A stretch of 64,000 bases of DNA from Octopus vulgaris. Lineage: Eukaryota. The DNA lies in the NCBI GenBank assembly GCA_951406725.2, contig OX597822.1:92628001-92692000 (forward strand), in the 5' to 3' direction. How positions within the stretch are numbered: position 1 is the first letter of the stretch; each line of letters starts with the position of its first letter. Position numbers and translations under genes: made by a program. Below are positions 2,426 to 47,257 of this stretch, piece by piece. The notes below the pieces were generated by a model. That model was not told the origin of the DNA. It worked only from the letters and a program-made list of their open reading frames with translations, and ran no database searches.

Positions 2426-2924
2426 CTGACCAAAAGGAGCAAACATGACATTTAAGGCTTACCATAAATATTTCATGCGTTATACATAGAAATATATTCC
2501 CATCCATCCATCCATCCATCCACCTATCTATATATGTGTGTGTCAGGATGTTGACAGCGATGGCTCTATTTTATGTCTGAGAAATTATTTTCGTCTCTGT
2601 TGAACATTTTCTTTATGGTGATGCCATTGATGACACAGTAGAGCACAGGTTCTCAAAGTGGGCATTGGGAGGGTCCAGATGGTTGCTGGTGTCTAAGGGG
2701 GTGGTGTAGGGGGTAGAGAAACGGGATGCATTGGGAGGAAGGCAGTTAATAGGGGGACACTATGAATTTATTATAATATTATTATAGTATTGTATACAAT
2801 ATTCACATCATTTACAATTGACGGATATTTGTCCTCATCTTGTTTGTTGTTAACACGTTTCCAGCCTTCATCCTGGGCTCTCATTCCTAAGCTATTTTTT
2901 GAAGTTATTATTATTATTATTATT

Positions 2925-3583
<659 letters not shown>

Positions 3584-3585
3584 GT

Positions 3586-3660
3586 CCGTGGGCATATGAC
3601 ATAGTGGTTAAGAGTGCGGGCTACTAACCCCAAGATTCTGAGTTCGATTTCAGTCAGTGA

Positions 3661-3698
<38 letters not shown>

Positions 3699-3865
3699 TC
3701 GAAAAATACCATAGGAATGAGAACCCAGGTTTGAAATTTCCCCAAGATACCTGATGAAGGGTGGAGGGTATATCAGCCGAAACGTGTTAACAATAAAGAC
3801 GAGGACAAATATCGTCAATTGTAAATAATGTAATTAATGTGCATAATTCTTCATATAGAACTGTA
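3586..3865 (+). mobile_element. tRNA-headed element with hammerhead ribozyme (family D); other copies 2790-2922(-), 8281-8556(-), 8557-8653(+), 23088-23378(+), 29308-29605(+)
   Basis: A-box-like TAGTGGTTAAG, GGG-CTACTAA-CCC arm, B-box-like GTTCGATT, (AAT)n, then CTGATGA-stem-GAAACG. Confidence 0.8.
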
Positions 3866-4139: not shown

Positions 4140-4385
4140 TTTTACTATAGTTTCAGCTCAGAGCTGTGGCCATGGCCATGCTGATGCACCGCTGTTTTGC
4201 TACACTGTCATTACTGAGAGCCTCCTCCAATATGTGGTGCTTGGTGAAGAATGGAGTTTGGTGTAGCTACCCTCATTTGCACCTCTTGGTGAGAGGTAGG
4301 TTCATCTGGGACTCTCAACAGGAAGAGGTCCAGCCTTGATTTAAAAATGTCTACATCTACTTTGTGCAGGTTCCTCAGGCTCAGT
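4140..4385 (-). mobile_element. CR1-like LINE 3' end fragment
   Basis: LRNLHKVDVDIFKSRLDLFLLRVPDEP motif. Confidence 0.6.
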
Positions 4386-4966
4386 ATATATAAATTAGTA
4401 AAATGTAAAATATTCATTTATACACAAAAATAGGAATGGGGCCACTGAGGGTATTATGTGGCAATGAGGGGGACAGTGGCCCCAAAAGTTTAAGAATTTC
4501 TGCTGTAGACCAATTTTTGTATAAAAGAGTCGATAGCTTTGACTGCATGACAATGTTGGTGAAGGATGAAGTTGATTTTGTTGAGCCTTTCCCACCTGTT
4601 ATTTGATTTCCTTTTTCTTTTCTGATGGCATCAGAGTTTTTGGTCCTAATGGTGATGGAACATTGCCACTTGGTAGTCTTGGGTTTGTGTTTCAAACAAT
4701 ATGGGCTCAGTTCCAATGGCTTTCGGTGTTGCTTTGAGTTGGCCCTTGAATCTTCAAAGAGGGCAACCCCATGGTCTTTTCCCTGAAGTGAGCTCACCGA
4801 ATACAACTTGGCGTGGGAACCTTACATATTAAATCCCCATCTGTAATCATCTGTCATATTCTTTTCACACTCTTGTGAACTTACCCACCCACCCATTCTA
4901 TCTCTCCATCCCTTTTTCTTGCTCTAGCTGCATTTTGTCAATGCTAGAATGTTGCAACATATTAAT

Positions 4967-7937: not shown

Positions 7938-8358
7938 CTTATTTTTATCAACCACAAGAGGATGAAAGGTAACTTTGATCTTGGTCGAATTTCAACCCAG
8001 AATATTAAGATGGACAAAATGATAGTTAAGTATCTTGCTAACAATTCTTCCAGCTTGTCACCTTGCAGTTATTAGGAATATTGATTATAAAAATACTTTA
8101 AAATAGGTCAACGAAAGTGCAGATGGCAACACCAGTTACAACATCATCAACAACAGAAATAACAAGCCAATAAAGGATAGAAAATGTGACGTTTTGACCA
8201 GCTAGAAACTGCTGTTAAATAACACCTTTAGGAAAAAAAGAAGATAAAACAGATCATATAATGTATCTCTAAATACATTCTACAGTTCTATATTTAAGAG
8301 ATGAGGAATTATGTACATTATTTACATTTGATAGATATTTGTCATCTTGTTTGTTGTT

Positions 8359-8404
8359 AACACAACGTTTCGGCTGATATACTCTCCAGCCTTCATCAGT
8401 TGTC
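8359..8404 (-). ncRNA. Minimal type I hammerhead ribozyme motif (Penelope-type)
   Basis: Reads GACAA CTGATGA A GGCTG-loop-CAGCC GAAAC GTT GTGTT; catalytic core intact, palindromic ACGT helix III. Confidence 0.7.
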
Positions 8405-9397
8405 TTGGGGAAATTTTGAATCTGGGTTCTCATTCCTAAGGTATTTTTCAATGTTGTTGTTATTATTATTATTATTATTATTCAGGTCACTGCCTGGAAT
8501 CGAACTTGGAATCTTGGGGTTAGTAGCCTGCACTCTTAACCGCAACACCATATGCTCCAAGACACCCGATAAAGGCTGGAGGGTATATCAGCTGAAATGT
8601 TGTGTTAACAACAAACAAGATGAGGACAAATATCTGTCAAATGTAAATAATGTAATTACATTCTTATTTCTTTATTGCCCTCAAGTGGTGAAACATAGAG
8701 GGGACAAACAAGGACAGACAAAGGAATTAAGTCGATTACATTGACCCCAGTGCGTAATTGGTACTTAATTTATCGACCCCGAACGAATGAAAGACAAAGT
8801 CGACCTCCGTGGAATTTGAACTCAAAACGTAACGGCAGACGAAATGCCTATTTCTTTACTACCCACAATGGGCTAAACACAGAGAGGACAAACAAGAACA
8901 GACAAATGGATTAAGTTGATTATATCGACCCAGTGCGTAACTGGTACTTTATTTATCGACCCCGAAAAGATGAAAGGCAAAGTCGACCTTGGCGGAATTT
9001 GAACTCAGAATGTAACAGCAAACGAAATACTGCTAAGCATTTCGCCCGGCGTGCTAACGTTTCTGCTAGATTGCCGCTGTCTGAAAAAAGAAAAGATGCT
9101 GTGATCCTATCTGGAACACCTTTGACCATATGGTTGCTTGACAGGAGATGACCTTGGGCTAAACACTAACGTTAGGTGATGTAATCTCAGGTATCCTTTC
9201 TAAAAAAAGACAATATGATCATGGCTGGTATATCTTTGATCATAAATCTTACTTTGCAATAGTGTTCGTGGGAGGCGGGGATGCTAAACAACAACAATAG
9301 CATACACGTACAGTCATTATCATCCATTCTTGTTAATATCCTCATGTCACTCTTCAGAAACAAAAAAAAATTGAGAGAGTTTTCCTGAAATTCTTAC

Positions 9398-22800: not shown

Positions 22801-23138
22801 CATCATTATTATTTTATTTTTATTTCATTTCATGTTGTTCTAGTGCTGTATGGAGACCAACATGTCAAACAATAGACCCAACATTTCTTCTGCATGTCAT
22901 AAACAGGGGCTAAAAATAAACTATAAAAGCCCTCACCACCAAAGACTACCTGAACAGATCCATGGGCTGGAGGGCTGTCGTCTTAGGGATGCAAAGGTAT
23001 CATCTGCCAAGAGTAGAAGGGAATCGCCAACAAATGGTGGATGCAACAATGCACTGTTACAGTACACCTCCCCATACTACTACTCTTGGGCTACTAACCC
23101 CAAGATTCCGAGTTAGATTCCAAGTAGTGACCTGAACT

Positions 23139-23187
<49 letters not shown>

Positions 23188-23581
23188 TAATAACAATGAT
23201 AATAACATCGAAAAATACCTTAGGAATGAGAACCCAGGTTCGAAATTTCCCCAAGACACCTGATGAAAGCTGGAGGGTATATCAACCGAAACGTGTTAAC
23301 AACAAACAAGATGAGAATAAATATCCGTTGAATGTAAATAATGTACATAATTCCTCATCTCTTAAATATAGAACTGTAAAAAGAAATATGTCCACACACA
23401 TAAACAGGAGGAAGGAAGGGAGAAGGAGAGAAACATTAAAATGTCTGATGTTAAATAAGTCAACATTGAATCAGTAACACCAAATAGACAGCACCAAAAC
23501 GATTGTACTGAAACATCTCACATCCACCAATCTGTATTGTTACACCTCCCAAAAATGATAAAAAAAAGGTGTTTTACATAC

Positions 23582-29250: not shown

Positions 29251-29397
29251 CTTTGTCTTCTTCAAATCTGATGCAATCTAATACATGCACTCTTAACCAC
29301 TACGCTACGGGCATAGTGGTTAAGAGAGCGGGCTATTAACCCCAAGATTATGAGTACGATTCCAAGCAGTGACCAGAATAATAATAATAATAATAAT

Positions 29398-29450
<53 letters not shown>

Positions 29451-32400
29451 TAACAACATCGAAAAATACCTTAGGAATGAGAACCGAGGTTTGAAATTTC
29501 CTCAAGACACCTGATGAAGGCTGGAGGGTATATCAGCTGAAATGGTGTGTTAATGACAAACAAGATGAGGACAAATATTCGTTGAATGTAAATAATGTAA
29601 ATAATGATGCAATCTATATTTGTAACAATACAATACAAGAAAAAAAAGTTATATTTCCATGTAACATTAATGGAAATTTCAAAATCAATCATAAAATTCC
29701 CAATGAATTCCGACTGAACAATTTCGCTAACTTTAAAACTTGCATTAGTCAAATTATTTTCTGTGTAGGTTGATGTCATTGTCGTTGTCTCCATCATTTA
29801 ACATCCATTTTCCATGCTGGCATGGGTTGGCTGGTTTGATAGGAGCTGCACCAAGTTCCATTACCTGTTTTGGAATGGTTTCTATGGCTGGAGGCCCTTT
29901 CTTATAGCAACCACTTTACAGAATGTATTGGGTGCTTTTTTACATGGCACCAACACAAGTGCTTTTCACATGGCACCAGCACCAACAGGATCCCCTATTG
30001 TTGGAATCATTGAGTGCTCAACTGGTATTTATTTTATCGACCCCTGAGTGGACGAAAGGCAAAGTTGACCTTGTGTTGTAACCTAGTTACTCGTTGCCAT
30101 TTATTGCAGTATTGTCACAATTAATGACGATACTTGTTTACACTATACCCATGTAGTAACAATAAAACATATAACAAAGCAGGTTAATAACAATGTAATA
30201 ATGCAACAAACTCTCCATGAATTATACATGAACCAACAAACGATATTCCGACAAACTACCAAAACGACACCTTACGACTTCCTGCGATTAATGCCTACTC
30301 TCTCTCTGTCTCTCACTCAGACCACTACTATTTATAGTTGTTTGGTTAAGTTTATTCTCACTGGGGGTGTCTTGACTCTTGCTACAACACCTTGGGAGAT
30401 TTTGAACTCAGAATGTAAAGACAGGCAAATTGCTGCTAACCTTTTTGCCGAGGCAATGCTAACACTTCTGCCAGCTCACTACCTTCATTCAGTGAAAAAT
30501 ATTAATCTTAGTTTATTGAGGAAAAAATATAGAGGCTAATCTGCATTGCAGAGGTATGGTAATCTCAGTGACTAGGAATTTTTAAACTTTACAATGAAAA
30601 GGAATGCCATACAACATTTTAAACTTGTTGATAATTCTTAATTAAAGTTAAATATAGGCATAGGAGTGGCTGTGTGGTAAGTGGCTTGCTTACCAACCAC
30701 ATAGTTCAGGGTTCAGTCCCACTGCATGGCACCTTGGGCAAGTGTCTTCTACAAGGCTTTGGTCGGCCCGAGGCTATAGTAGAAGACACTTACCCAAGGT
30801 ACGACGCAGTGGGACTGAACCTGGAACCATGTGGTTCGTAAGCAAGCTACATACCACACAGCTACGCCTATGCCTAATAAAAACAAAAAAATCCAGGATG
30901 GTCACAGCTGGAACAGTTTTGATCCTTTATTTATCCAATCAGAGCTGGTCTGAGGCTAAACAAACTCTGCAACAACATTAGATTGTCCCATTTTCTCCCA
31001 TGCTTGCTTGCTTACTCCACTGATAGAATGTCAGTTCTGGTATTTCAAAAATTAACTGCACAAGCCTTGGAAATTGAAGCATTTTTTAACAATGGTCACA
31101 AAGCAAAATAAATATTAAAACAGTTTTTTGAAAATAATGTATTTTAAACAAATCATTTAGTTATTAAGTATGCAGCTTATGTCTATCAACAAGGCATACA
31201 CTGGGTGGTATTTGGGTTGTATTTAAATTGAAATCATTTATATGAAGTAAAAAATGCAATAGAAATATGTCCATACAATAACAGGAACATAGCAACACTA
31301 CTTATTTCTCATGTTGGGGGCAATAACAGAAATAGTGTAGCTGGTAGTGGATGAAAGAATTCAGATGGCTCAAAGTGATGATTTTCTGGGGGAGTGCCTT
31401 TGAGTCTGCTGTATAAGTGTGTACAGGCTGTGGAGCTGAGTGGTAAACTCAAGGGCTGCCCCAGGTAGCACACTCTCTAGCTACATCACTGTAAAAAGCA
31501 CCTGTGCTGGTGCCACGTAAAAAGTGGCTGTGCTGGTGCCATGGAAAAAGTGGCTGTGCTGGTGCCATGGAAAAAACACTGGTCTGGTGCCACATCAAAA
31601 ACACCCAGTACACTCTCTAAAGTGGTTAGTATTTTGAAAGGCATCCAGCCATAGAAAGCATGCTAAAACAGACAAGTGGAAGCTGATGCAGCTCTCCAGC
31701 TTGCCAGCTCCAGTTAAACTGTCCATCCCAAGCCAGCATGGAAAACAAGCAGTAAATGATGGCAATGATAAAAATAATAATAATTATGCAATACTAGTTC
31801 TAAATACCTTCAAATGCTGATCATATATTTTTGTTCTTTTATTGGTTTCAGTTATTTGACTGTGGCCATTCTGGGGCACTACCTTCAAGGACTTAGTTGT
31901 TTATATTAATGCCATTATTTTGTTTGGTATATATTTTATTGATTTCATAAGAGGCAAAGGGTAAAGTTGCTTAGGTGTGAAACAAGGTAACTGAGATGGA
32001 AACAAAAATCCTGCAAATTCTATTTTATTCAACACACCAATTCCATCAGCATGGCAATAAGCAGAAACACAATGCATATGTAAGTAGATGTACATGCATA
32101 TGCACTCACAGAAGTACGTGAGATTTTGCACAATTTCTGTTCACCAAAATTCACTTAGAAGTCTTTGATCAAACTAAGCTACGATAGAGGACATTTACTG
32201 AATGTGGTGCCCAGAGCGATCATACTGCAAACCTTATGCCTTCAAGGTTGATGAATATATGCATGTTGTTAAAATATGAGGCCTACCTTCCAGAGTAGGG
32301 AAAATAACATTTTTTATCTGCTAACTGGAAATTTCTCAATAAACAACAATGGCAGTATGTGCAAGAATTCACCAATTTTGATATTTTGTTCAAAGTTACA

Positions 32401-43452: not shown

Positions 43453-43718
43453 CATACATACGTACGTCTGAGTTTTCCAGCAGCGGAGTGGTTACGCTGG
43501 TTTTTTAAAATCTTTTCCAAGTTATTTCGCATCAAAATCACGTGTAAACGGTTCCTTTCCCCAGAAAAGGAAATATTTGGCTGCTATTTCTTGCACGCCC
43601 TGCTACCACGTAACAGGTATTTCGGGTCCTTTATCACAAATAGCTGTTACGTACGTACGCACGTACGTATACAGAGAGTAAAAGCGACTAATGTACTTTC
43701 TCCAAATCCAATCTGTTA

Positions 43719-44261
43719 GCTTTTGCTAAGCTGGGTACGATCAGATGGACGGGAGGACAGGTGGACGAGTACGCGGCAGAAGTTCGAAGGTTAGCGACGC
43801 TGGCTGTGTTTATAGGAGAAGGGCTGGAGAGAGCAGCGCGACTGGCGTTTGTAAATGGGTTCCCCGACGATGTAGGGATTCACCTACAACGATTGCCCGG
43901 GATTAAAAAGATGGCGCTGAGCGAACTTGTGACTCAAACCCGCGTGTTGACGCGACACTCTGGGCGGAAGGCGATAGCGATGGCGGTGACGGAGGTGCGT
44001 AAAGACGGACGACGACCGGAGAAAGACGTACAGAAGCCTACCATGCAACGACAGCGGCCGTTCTCAGGTCGGTGTTTTAGATGTCAGGGGTCGCATATGG
44101 CGCGGGACTGTACGCAACCGGGGCTCGTTTGCTATCGATGCAGGCAGACAGGGCACATCGCCCGTGATTGCGACCAGGGAAACGACCGCGGGGAAGTTTC
44201 TGCTCTCGAACTTTCCCCGCAAACGAGTAGAGGCGCTATTGGAGACGCTGCCATTAATTGA
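43719..44261 (+). pseudogene. gag: Gypsy gag C-terminal part with two CCHC zinc knuckles
   Basis: CFRCQGSHMARDC and CYRCRQTGHIARDC; N-terminus missing. Confidence 0.9.
44177..44220 (+). promoter_or_regulatory. -1 programmed ribosomal frameshift signal (G GGA AAC plus stem-loop)
   Basis: X XXY YYZ heptamer in gag phase at 44177-44183; hairpin GCGGGGAAGTT (44188-44198) / AACTTTCCCCGC (44209-44220). Confidence 0.8.
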
Positions 44262-44690
44262 CGTGGAGGCCGAGGGGAAGACGTTCAAGGCCCTCGTGGA
44301 TACGGGCTGTACGACCACCCTTGTGACTTCAAGGGTGACGAAGAAATGGAACGGGGCAAGTGGCGTCCGGGCGGTCGACGGCAGCGAAATCCGTTGCAGA
44401 GGCAGCAGCAAGGTAGAGATAGTGGTGCGCGGCGCGACGTTAAGGTAATTGTGGATGAACGCGTGATAGATGGGGTTGATGTGGTGATGGGGATGGACGC
44501 CATCAACCACCTCGGTGGCGTCAGTATTGTGGGAGATGAGGTCACGTTCGGAAGCGTGGGGGCATCGTGCACTGCGAGTCAGGATCGCCAGAGAGAGCAG
44601 AGCTCCGCGAGGGACTGCGCCGCCTACACCATCGAGGACAAAGACTTTCTGGCGGCGTTCAATGGTCAGCGGTGGACGATAGAGTGGCGA
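44194..44690 (+). pseudogene. Retropepsin aspartic protease, frameshifted
   Basis: ALVDTG catalytic motif in one frame and DVVMGMD in another; frame changes near 44445 and 44690. Confidence 0.88.
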
Positions 44691-46990
44691 TGCTGAAAAA
44701 CAGAGTGAGCTGTTACCAGCATATTCTGAAAGGCCACGCCAGGGTTGAGTTTGAAGACGAGGTGGAGAGGTGGATCGAGGAAGGGGTCCTTGTCTCTTGG
44801 GAGGAGGAGGTAGCGGGCGGAGTGCTACCCCTGATGGCGGTGGTGCAGCCTACGAAGGGAAAAGTCAGACCGGTGCTGGACTTCAGGGAGCTAAACCAGC
44901 ATTTATCGTGTCACACGGAAGGTGAGGCGACAGACGTTTGTGGTGAGACGTTACGTGCGTGGAGACAGTCGACCAAGGCAGCGACGATTGTCGACTTGAA
45001 ATCGGCATACTTGCAGCTCCATGTGAGTGACAAACTGCGGCGATATCAGCTGGTGCGATACAAAGGCCGGACGTACTGTTTAACCAGGCTGGGTTTCGGG
45101 CTGAATTCCGCTCCGAAGATCATGGCGGCAGTGCTTAAGTCCGTCCTAGGGAAAGACGGCAAGATTAGAAAGGCTACCAGCTCCTACATTGACGACATTT
45201 TGGTGGACGAAACTGTAGTGCCAGCCAACGAGGTAGTTAGACATCTGGAGAAGTTCGGACTGATTGCGAAGCCACCGGAGTCGATGGAAGGAGGAGCCGC
45301 GCTGGGGATGAAGCTGCGAAAAGATAGATCGGGTGAATTGGTGTTCCGGAGAGGGAATGAAATCCCAGAGCTGAGTTCCAGCGTCAGCAGGAGAGAGCTG
45401 TTCTCGGTGTGTGGGAAGTTGGTCGGTCACTACCCGATCGCTGGATGGCTGCGCACGGCGTGCAGTTACACCAAGAGACAAGCGGAGGGGGAGAGTTGGG
45501 GCGACAAGGTGGGAGAAGGGACAGTGGCGATGATGCAGGAAATCCTAGAGAGGACGAGAGCGGAAGACCCGGTCAGGGGGAACTGGTACGTGCCCAAGAC
45601 GGACTGCGGGAGCGTCTGGTGTGATGCTAGTAGTATAGCGATAGGGGTTGTGTTGGCAATCGAAGGGGCTGCGGTGGAGGACGCGGCCTGGCTTCGGAAA
45701 GCAGATGACTTCAACCACATCAATGTCGCCGAATTAGATGCGGTGCTGATAGGGGTGAACTTGGCCCTGAAATGGAAGCTGCGCACAATTGAAATCCGGA
45801 CGGATTCGGCCACTGTGCTTGGCTGGGTAGGATCGGTGATCACCGGTGAAAGGAGAATGCGGACGAAAGGTGCCGCGGAGATGTTAGTGAAGCGACGTCT
45901 AGGAGTTCTAGGTGAATTGATCGCCGAGTTCGGACTGAAGCTGAACGTGGTTTTCGTGTCTTCGGAGAAAAACAGGGACGCACTGACCAGGGTGAAAAGA
46001 GCGTGGTTGGAAGAACCGGAGGAGGCCCGGAAAGGGATAGCTGCGGCGTGTCGGTTGGATGACTCTGAACTGAAGAGACTGCATGCTATGCATCACCTGG
46101 GTGTGGACAGGACCCTGTATCTGGCGAAGAAAATTGATGCTGACGTCACTAGGAGAAGCATCCGGAAAGTGGTTGGGAGCTGCGACAGGTGTCAGTCCAT
46201 CGACCCTGCTCCGTTTGGGCATGAGCAGGGAAACCTTTCGGTGGAGCACAACTGGAAAAGGCTAACTGTGGATGTGACGCACTACCGTCAGGGTATGTAT
46301 CTCTCCATGGTCGACTGCGGGCCGGGCCGGCTGGCCATTTGGAGGGAGTTGAGAACGGGCATTGCTGACGAGATCGCGCAGATCTTGAACGAGATATTTT
46401 TAGAGAGAGGTCCCGTGGAAGAACTGCTGATGGACAACGGGGCGGCGTTTCGTTCGGAAGCATTGAGGGTTATGCTTGATCGGTGGAAGGTGCGTCGCTT
46501 GTTCAGAGCAACGTATAGGCCGAGCGGTAACGGGATCGTAGAGAGGCACCATCTGACAGTCAAGGCCATAGCGGAAAGAGGGCACATTTCGCCGCTTGAA
46601 GCAGTTTTTTGGTACAACTTGTCTCTCCGATCCGGACAAGCTGAGTAATCTGTGCCGCAGAGAGCTGTATTTAAATATGAACTGAGGCACCCGAGCAAAG
46701 CGCCGGAGGGCCACGAGGAAGAGAAGGGGCCCGTTTGCGTGAAAATAGGGGAGGAAGTCTGGGTTAAGCCACCAAAGGCGCGCTGTACGTCTCAATGGAG
46801 CAGAGGAACAGTGACGGCGGTCAATTCCAGAAACAACGTCTCTGTGGATGGAATGCCGCGACACGTCTTGGACCTTCGCAGGATTGTCGCTTCGACGGAC
46901 AACCATTGTGGAGAGGGGGAGAATGAGGTGCCCAGCTTGAGAAGATCTCGACGCGCAAGGCGCCCTCCCTGCTGGATGGTGGACTACGAC
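44690..46990 (+). pseudogene. pol: Gypsy pol: reverse transcriptase, RNase H, integrase
   Basis: RPVLDFRELN, LGFGLNSAP, YIDD; VWCDASS; HH..CDRC; VDV/MDNG/IVER integrase triad; in-frame TAA at 46646-46648 followed by in-frame C-terminal domain and RRSRR..PPCWMVDY tail. Confidence 0.93.
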
Positions 46991-47014
46991 ATGATCTTTA
47001 AGATCAGGGTGGCG

Positions 47015-47257
47015 TGTAGGATGACGTCAGCAGCTGGGGAGCTGACCGGGAGGGGCAGCGCGCGGGGGATTCTACCTTTTCGAGTCAGGTCGCCGAGGGG
47101 CTAAGACGGGTCATCACGTTGTTAAGGTTGGGTGAAGCAGCTGCTATCTCTAGCGTTCGGGTCGGGCTGTGTTGAAGGATCCGTTACCGTTGAAGGGTCT
47201 CCATCTGAGCGAAGAGAAGGTAGGTGCCTTTATTTCGAATCTCTCGCATACACCACA
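47015..47257 (+). repeat. 3' LTR of Gypsy element A
   Basis: Starts TGT right after aagatcagggtggcg; ends in CA at 47252 or 47257; integrase-like sequence resumes immediately after. Confidence 0.6.

Follow-up and report, generated by a model that had tools for sequence, protein, structure and literature searches.

The window, by which we mean the whole 64,000-nucleotide stretch of Octopus vulgaris DNA analysed here, contains several arms of a repeat that consists of a tRNA-like head, a simple-repeat spacer and a body with a hammerhead motif (Table 1). The first-pass annotation had counted six copies within 30 kb. BLAST and re-alignment confirm these as six arms belonging to five insertions between 2805 and 29605, and by the same methods no arm of the tRNA-head/hammerhead repeat was found between 30 and 64 kb. 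The copy at 3590-3863(+) ends at the long 3' site. Its ribozyme is broken, because a 3-nt deletion takes out the cleavage triplet and mismatches are present at 3748 (helix I) and 3761 (helix II); the hammerhead consensus proposed earlier thus holds for the family majority and fails for this copy. The pattern CTGATGA..GAAAC occurs four times in the window against 0.34 expected by chance, three of the four being members of this repeat family, and the core together with the cleavage triplet is kept in at most one of the six arms (8367-8399). The insertion at 8281..8656 is predicted to form a long RNA hairpin.

Other repeats are found in the same window. Positions 3000-3480 hold an abundant repeat with an (ATT)n tail (12 clusters in 560 kb) that often adjoins the tRNA-head family, and the (ATT)n array at 3481..3579 probably represents the tail of another repeat lying upstream and would also have been the insertion target. 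A further abundant repeat at 8661-8900 (77 clusters in 560 kb) is presumably CORE-SINE-like. At 43692-47104(+) lies a GC-rich, LTR-retrotransposon-like stretch with a zinc-knuckle gag, a protease and a 702-aa RT-RNase H-integrase frame, the domains being assigned by eye.

Seven insertions in 56 arbitrary 10-kb stretches (560 kb) correspond to ∼35,000 insertions genome-wide (95% range 14,000-72,000). Copies share ∼94% identity with the majority and show 21% change at CpG positions, and the family is therefore old, with an age of roughly 10-17 million years at the rate quoted in PMC13282606.

Table 1. Coordinates of the repeat arms and their parts in the window, and of the related locus L311.
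Feature	Position	Strand	Basis or remark
Body-only arm, internal deletion, short end	2805..2902	-	re-alignment
(ATT)n array	3481..3579	+	sequence
Fold-back junction remnant at head 5' end	3580..3597	.	8-bp inverted arm, one mismatch, 2-nt loop
tRNA-Arg-derived head, predicted internal Pol III promoter	3590..3664	+	boxes, tRNA match
A box	3597-3607	+	head of 3590-3863 arm
Anticodon-loop-like CTACTAA	3621-3627	+	head of 3590-3863 arm
B box	3642-3651	+	head of 3590-3863 arm
(AAT)n/(AAC)n spacer, length variable	3665..3696	+	sequence
Body = 5' end of Penelope ORF	3697..3863	+	in-frame reading in L158, L161, L295
Upstream in-frame ATG	3717	+	putative true start
Minimal type I hammerhead, broken here	3746..3788	+	core CTGATGA 3751-3757, GAAA 3779-3782
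Penelope 'tail'	3823..3863	+	short 3' end site ∼3831, long site 3863
Head-to-head fold-back insertion	8281..8656	.	flanking 8-bp repeat TACATTCT
Full arm with long end, in 8281..8656	8281-8555	-	re-alignment
Truncated arm with short end, in 8281..8656	8557-about 8656	+	re-alignment
5'-truncated arm, long end, 3-nt-deleted hammerhead	23088..23378	+	re-alignment
Arm and inverted head fragment in target duplication	29269..29616	.	arm 29310-29605(+), short end
12-bp target duplication	29269-29280 / 29605-29616	.	surrounds arm 29310-29605(+)
Inverted head fragment ahead of 29310-29605(+) arm	29287-29305	- relative to arm	re-alignment
L311 tandem Penelope stretches	L311:1459-1730 and 4234-4564		metagenome contig

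The tRNA-like head and the hammerhead

The earlier claim of a tRNA-like head is borne out. The 75-nt head of the family majority carries a near-canonical A box at +8 and B box at +53, and when aligned to 27 distinct tRNAs of the genome itself (30 loci, a partial set of isotypes) it matched tRNA-Arg(TCT) best, with 51/75 identities and a z of 7.2. The tRNA origin of the head follows from these boxes and this alignment. ARAGORN returned no tRNA at default settings and implausible folds only at lowered thresholds, and found no cloverleaf fold in the head. Rfam gave no tRNA or hammerhead match at the gathering threshold in the window, and for six loci and two narrow stretches none at E ≤ 10, only simple-repeat noise. 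At four loci (L003, L131, L132 and L139) one common unrelated repeat end is followed by (AAT)n and the body, with no tRNA head, an arrangement that could be due to common targeting of AAT or to a second chimeric source.

Behind the head and a variable (AAT)n, the family majority has a 174-nt body containing GACAC-CTGATGA-A-GGCTG-loop-CAGCC-GAAA-CGTT-GTGTT. The core, helices I-III, the G10.1-C11.1 pair and the NUH triplet of a minimal type I hammerhead are present both in this majority and in related loci. The 3' half of the intact hammerhead has 4,752 exact matches in the genome against 0 for a reversed-pattern control, and the form with the 3-nt deletion has 593; the share of ∼10% for the deleted variant is taken from exact-match counts and RNA reads, as the first 30 loci were biased toward the deletion by the query. 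The deletion was also seen in an ORF-bearing copy (L162). An intact ribozyme is found in 10 of 32 full-span arms, and most genomic copies are broken. The expectation that the core should be better conserved than its flanks failed, with 7.3% of the core changed against 5-6% of the flanks in 35 arms. Such a flat pattern is expected from the neutral decay of dead copies, and it is consequently uninformative on whether the source element had a working ribozyme. Several of 79 metagenome loci from related Penelopes carry hammerheads after or before the ORF; these have the same core and a CG helix III with no loop, and their helices I and II differ in sequence but are still paired, which supports the ribozyme fold at the level of the family. 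For cleavage, the hammerhead would need to dimerise or to be assisted by protein. It is probably dispensable for insertion, by analogy with lizard Poseidon, where it is not needed for insertion in vitro (PMC11167929). One 47%-identical homolog (P0007) has an N-terminus that, as protein sequence, begins MKAEDMDRPKRRV; its start codon would then lie within the hammerhead core, with the reading frame shifted by one base compared with the present family. Other hammerhead-like motifs with different helices lie near other Penelope families of this genome (L034, L065, L067, L072 and L076).

A Penelope terminal repeat

The head, the AAT spacer, the ribozyme and the tail almost certainly constitute the pseudo-LTR and the tail of a Penelope-like element that has decayed, since the unit follows the stop of the ORF and reads in frame into its start. 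The order is ORF stop, 27 nt, head, (AAT)n, ATG, hammerhead, tail and ORF. The sequence upstream of the head, first found to be common to two loci, encodes in L011 an RT and a C-terminal endonuclease-like region whose stop lies ∼27 nt before the head; we take its C-terminal VYSIP..YKGET stretch to be GIY-YIG-like. The L011 translation displays RT motifs, with a sub-threshold match to PF00078 (E 1.8e-5). The ORF protein has 897 homologs at E ≤ 1e-30; those listed carry PF00078 (RT), PF28514 and PF26215, and 2 of the 120 homologs listed have PF01541 in addition. RT and endonuclease thus share a single ORF, which is broken in every copy seen: the 150 scored of 5,232 candidates included no intact full-length ORF, the longest open frame being 569 aa. 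In 20 loci chosen by their RT protein alone, the head occupies the same post-ORF position in 7 as a direct arm (one of them, L151, being the query locus) and in 5 more in an inverted arm, and the rest are truncated or rearranged. The majority body is an open frame through ribozyme and tail into the N-terminus of the ORF, as read in the three loci given for it in Table 1, and L293 retains the whole tandem junction. The pseudo-LTR arises from a partial tandem and overlaps the ORF start. The protein is 40% identical over 99% to an Anolis sagrei protein and 28% identical to the other Penelope family of the genome. Architecture, identity and the hammerhead over the ORF start would place the element in the Poseidon clade.

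These results modify what the first-pass annotation had proposed, namely a separate chimera that borrows a Penelope tail. Homology to a Penelope terminus was found, and the minimal-type hammerhead and the Penelope insertion marks on the copies confirm the link; the separate chimera is not borne out, as the entire unit belongs to the coding element and is its own terminal repeat. The unit works like a SINE of the Penelope element but is a member of the Penelope-like elements. A young Penelope family with a 781-aa protein (L061-L066), found through PF01541, was considered as a partner and rejected, since it shares no sequence with the unit and has a TATA-type repeat. That family comprises many frames of identical length (e.g. 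L061:2745-5087) with an upstream frame of 330-480 aa, and its terminal repeat carries tandem TGACGTC/ATTGG motifs; a hammerhead scan of it found none.

A similar A/B-box head is found in one distant relative. Of the 79 related metagenome loci, 19, which come from a smaller number of independent families, extend 150 nt or more beyond the ORF, and an A/B-box pair was detected in 1 of these 19 (L311, chance about 0.01). L311, with 37-44% protein identity, is a tandem in which A box, B box, AAT repeats and hammerhead follow each other in the same order and in the same slot between ORF stop and ORF start. Its head is unlike the present one in sequence and has no Rfam match, so that L311 is a lead for independent capture and not a proof of it.

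Insertion marks, the 5' boundary and the proposed Pol III step

We analysed 106 insertions, of which 29 were found by body BLAST, 65 by hammerhead motif, 7 in the unbiased sample and 5 in the window, after L123, L127, L138 and L145 (second arms of counted insertions) and L148 (a near-duplicate of L147) had been dropped. The 3' ends of their 168 arms fall at two sites ∼30 nt apart, 81 at body positions 140-149 and 74 at 170-184. These agree with the 30-40-nt tail, which is optional, and with the pair of RT start sites in lizard Poseidon (PMC11167929). Head-to-head arrangements were found in 58 of the 106 insertions and a tail-to-tail arrangement in 1; for two other repeats in the unbiased sample, taken as controls, the clusters containing both strands numbered 5 of 77 and 0 of 12. 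Picking by motif favours two-arm insertions, and the statement that about half of the insertions are fold-backs therefore rests also on the unbiased sample (3 of 7 head-to-head). One long and one short 3' end are combined in 50 of the 58 head-to-head insertions (p 8e-9), a count left uncorrected although one of the two long+long pairs, window 8281-8656, is long+short on inspection. Of the 59 two-strand insertions, 27 are bordered by duplications of 9-14 bp, compared with 1 of the 47 single-arm copies (shuffled control 0.65), and that lone single-arm copy also carries an inverted fragment. Shared non-CpG variants numbered 27 between arms of one insertion versus 6.4 between insertions. The combination expected of LINE-type insertion, a single arm with a simple-repeat 3' tail and a target duplication, was not found in these copies, whose 3' ends lie at two fixed internal sites. 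Inverted Penelope copies with the tail at one end were already known (PMC8557442, PMC3846280), and our copy-level counts are an addition to them. The Poseidon endonuclease prefers ATT in vitro (PMC11167929).

The 5' ends are equally uneven. Head-bearing arms number 73; of the 50 that extend as far as +5, 36 stop at -7..+5, where ∼4 would be expected from the truncation rate inside the head; 5 arms run more than 30 nt upstream of it. Exact 5' ends peak at +1 (9/39), many arms start at +1..+5 beside unrelated sequence, and thirty head-picked loci have the same boundary pattern. Ordinary 5' truncation is also common, as 95 of the 168 arms end before reaching the head. Genome counts of 20-mers are 5,148 for the head, 1,027 for the ORF end (∼60 nt upstream) and 76 for the ORF start. 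Pol III normally starts at a distance from the A box that corresponds to -6..+1. No T4 run is present in the unit or in the ∼2.4 kb majority ORF (2.8 expected, p about 0.03), so that Pol III read-through is permitted; this absence is unspecific, since T4 runs are also missing from L323 and L341, which lack A/B boxes, and two such runs occur near the start of the L311 ORF.

The pile-up of 5' ends at the start of the head suggests a Pol III transcript that is turned into SINE-sized copies by internal priming. We hypothesize, with a probability of roughly 0.65 and on the strength of the sequence patterns described above, that the head is an internal Pol III promoter in the Penelope terminal repeat, and that most of the dispersed copies are reverse transcripts of RNA begun there. 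According to this hypothesis transcription by Pol III would begin between about -6 and +1 relative to the head, with neither the unit nor the majority ORF supplying a T4 terminator. The RT would then prime internally, on whichever tail it encounters first, a behaviour observed in vitro for the lizard Poseidon RT. A transcript of the upstream repeat would consequently yield a SINE-sized cDNA of 230-265 nt, and ORF-bearing copies would need priming at the downstream tail of a tandem. Both nicked target strands would be primed, one per start site, and the cDNAs would join or snap back, via the 5-bp palindrome at the RNA 5' end or other microhomology, to give the fold-back. Fold-backs within host transcripts would likely form double-stranded RNA and undergo ADAR editing. 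Several points speak against the Pol III step: the RNA reads described below give no direct sign of it, uncapped Pol III RNA would translate poorly, which leaves the supply of protein unexplained, and the palindrome could by itself set the 5' boundary.

Sequence of the family is present in RNA runs under three organism labels. Two raw runs of organism B gave 9,246 and 7,554 aligned reads from ∼6% of each run. Depth was equal on both strands and 85-86% of the reads continued into unlike flanks, indicating that the family is mostly a passenger in long transcripts. No place was found in the two runs where many molecules begin or end, a weak result given that the libraries were fragmented, and no go-back joint, as expected of circular RNA, was among the 15 listed (177 further joints) in libraries not made for circles. 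The fold-back junction and the two 3' sites are recovered in loose read ends. Changes in the raw RNA reads were of the A>G type at 25-26 places and of the T>C type at 18-20, against at most 4 for any transversion type, and against 5 and 3, respectively, in DNA contigs. Single A>G/T>C sites reached 13-29% in RNA and 0.2-1.2% in the DNA contigs; some transversion sites also reached 22-26% in RNA, and the DNA compared consists of unmatched contigs, which drop variants. RNA contigs, which likewise drop variants, displayed no editing excess. The excess of A>G/T>C is the A-to-I signature expected of fold-backs, and the RNA is likely edited. Abundant double-stranded RNA and editing have been described for octopus and for lizard Penelope (PMC5625713).

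The same observations could be accommodated if the copies were ordinary Penelope fragments with a passenger head, i.e. an old piece of tRNA-SINE residing in a terminal repeat that is transcribed by Pol II or by read-through. The 5' pile-up would then result from template switching at the native palindrome (-6..+5), after which the centre of the hairpin was deleted asymmetrically, or from processing of the RNA where its tRNA-like part begins. The 5-bp palindrome does coincide with the 5' boundary, L150 and L220 have deletions across it, and the fold-back junction of the kind found at 3580..3597 (17 of 124 loci at ≤3 mismatches) has 224 exact genome matches versus 227 for the native junction. 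Rotifer Penelopes, moreover, have palindromes at the 5' ends of their pLTRs together with inverted junctions (PMC3846280), and the RNA has no start pile-up. However, a 5-bp stem with a 2-nt loop would seem a weak cause for ∼70% mid-template stops, the many arms that begin at +1..+5 lie beside unrelated sequence, and there is no cloverleaf for RNase P to act upon. The near-canonical majority boxes, and a second lineage with A and B boxes in the same slot, also argue for a functional head, and we consider the passenger explanation unlikely.

The model of the first-pass annotation, an independent non-autonomous SINE whose short copies would themselves be masters, served in trans by the Penelope protein, draws on the excess of heads over ORF ends (∼5 to 1) and ORF starts (∼70 to 1). 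The 593 matches of the 3-nt-deleted variant, sometimes present on both arms, would fit separate masters as well, but the deletion recurs in the ORF-bearing L162, and the unit is the terminal repeat of a coding element. Short copies reach ORF +154 at most, whereas lizard Poseidon RNA needs the first 172 nt of the ORF in vitro (PMC11167929); if that requirement carries over, the short copies would be dead ends. Together with the target duplication around only 1 of 47 single-arm copies, this makes independent masters quite improbable. That multimeric transcripts self-cleave, circularise and are inserted by the Penelope RT, as in a retrozyme, is not supported and in our view very improbable indeed. 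Animal retrozymes have been proposed to derive from pLTRs (bioRxiv 10.64898/2026.07.22.740005), and one tandem array of 8.5 x 215-bp body units with an inverted tail piece exists (L174:3200-5120), yet this array has no head and a deleted ribozyme, and no tandem units with a complete hammerhead were found. Copies end at head and tail instead of the cleavage site, 5 of 106 insertions contain same-strand repeats, and the RNA has neither an end pile-up nor a listed go-back joint.

Known relatives and significance

The octopus element resembles EN+ Penelope/Poseidon elements such as Anolis carolinensis Poseidon (PMC11167929, PMC8557442, PMC3846280) in several respects. RT and C-terminal endonuclease lie in a single ORF, the pLTR overlaps the beginning of this ORF, where the hammerhead is also located, and a tail of 30-40 nt is delimited by two 3' end sites. 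A 5'-truncated copy occurs in inverted orientation, the tail is present at one end, target duplications are short and the targets are AT-rich. Unlike these elements, most head-bearing octopus copies stop at the head, and no intact copy was seen; unlike the rotifer pLTRs, which have TATA/Inr signals, the octopus slot between ORF stop and ORF start holds the tRNA-Arg-derived A/B-box head. The predicted ribozyme resembles the minimal hammerheads of metazoan PLEs (PMC4209133) in its CUGAUGA/GAAA core, the unpaired base before helix II, G10.1-C11.1, a palindromic 2-bp loopless helix III and a short helix I, and differs from them in a helix II of 5 bp with a 10-nt loop and in that most genomic copies are broken.

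A small-RNA-derived, Pol III-type promoter in a retrotransposon terminal repeat is also found in the TRIMp3 elements Helenus, Ajax and Cassandra, whose promoters have been proposed to arise by SINE insertion (PMC10886601). TRIMp3 are non-autonomous LTR elements with PBS, PPT and 4-5-bp duplications, whereas the octopus host is a coding Penelope-like element with pseudo-LTR and hammerhead; the octopus repeat lies outside this group, belonging to a Penelope ORF and having duplications of 9-14 bp. Schistosome Sm-alpha/Sj-alpha are likewise SINE-like, tRNA-related, high-copy repeats with a hammerhead (PMC2770079), which is canonical in them (PMC4209133) and minimal in octopus; the available parts of these two papers contain no report of Sm-alpha/Sj-alpha as the terminal repeat of a coding element. 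Animal non-LTR retrozymes (bioRxiv 10.64898/2026.07.22.740005) share the type I hammerhead in a short non-coding pLTR-related repeat, but consist of tandem units, whereas the octopus family is mostly single or inverted with ends off the cleavage site. The tRNA head, the length of ∼265 nt and the tens of thousands of copies are shared with tRNA SINEs, including OK, OR1 and OR2 of octopus (PMC4758252, PMC4824008), OR2 (PMC4758252) and OR1 (PMC4824008) each being called a CORE-SINE. Unlike tRNA SINEs, the octopus repeat has no LINE-type tail, no duplication around single arms, and a fold-back insertion. The family may nevertheless be identical with OK, OR1 or OR2, which are octopus SINE families of 1994, or with 'Twitch', a further possible match. 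It may also reside in repeat databases as an unclassified SINE or a Penelope fragment. Our search of openly accessible papers found no description of a tRNA- or Pol III-headed Penelope.

Taken together, we tentatively propose, at somewhat less than even odds, that a Penelope lineage swapped the Pol II promoter of its terminal repeat for a tRNA-derived Pol III one. Because the Penelope RT primes internally, its own transcript would be both coding RNA and SINE, one master giving tens of thousands of fold-backs whose hairpins would be ADAR substrates. Capture would have occurred independently in at least one other lineage (L311), making this a recurring class and a route to Penelope-dependent SINEs. 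If true, the element would be the Penelope counterpart of LTR elements with Pol III promoters, and a SINE-like family could arise from a coding retroelement without a separate chimera. The combination of long and short ends and the duplications found almost only at two-arm copies fit both-strand priming at two start sites known in vitro, and the family thereby supplies copy-level numbers on the mechanism of Penelope insertion. Roughly every second insertion is a hairpin from the outset, and this connects the family with the abundant double-stranded RNA and editing reported for octopus and lizard Penelope (PMC5625713).
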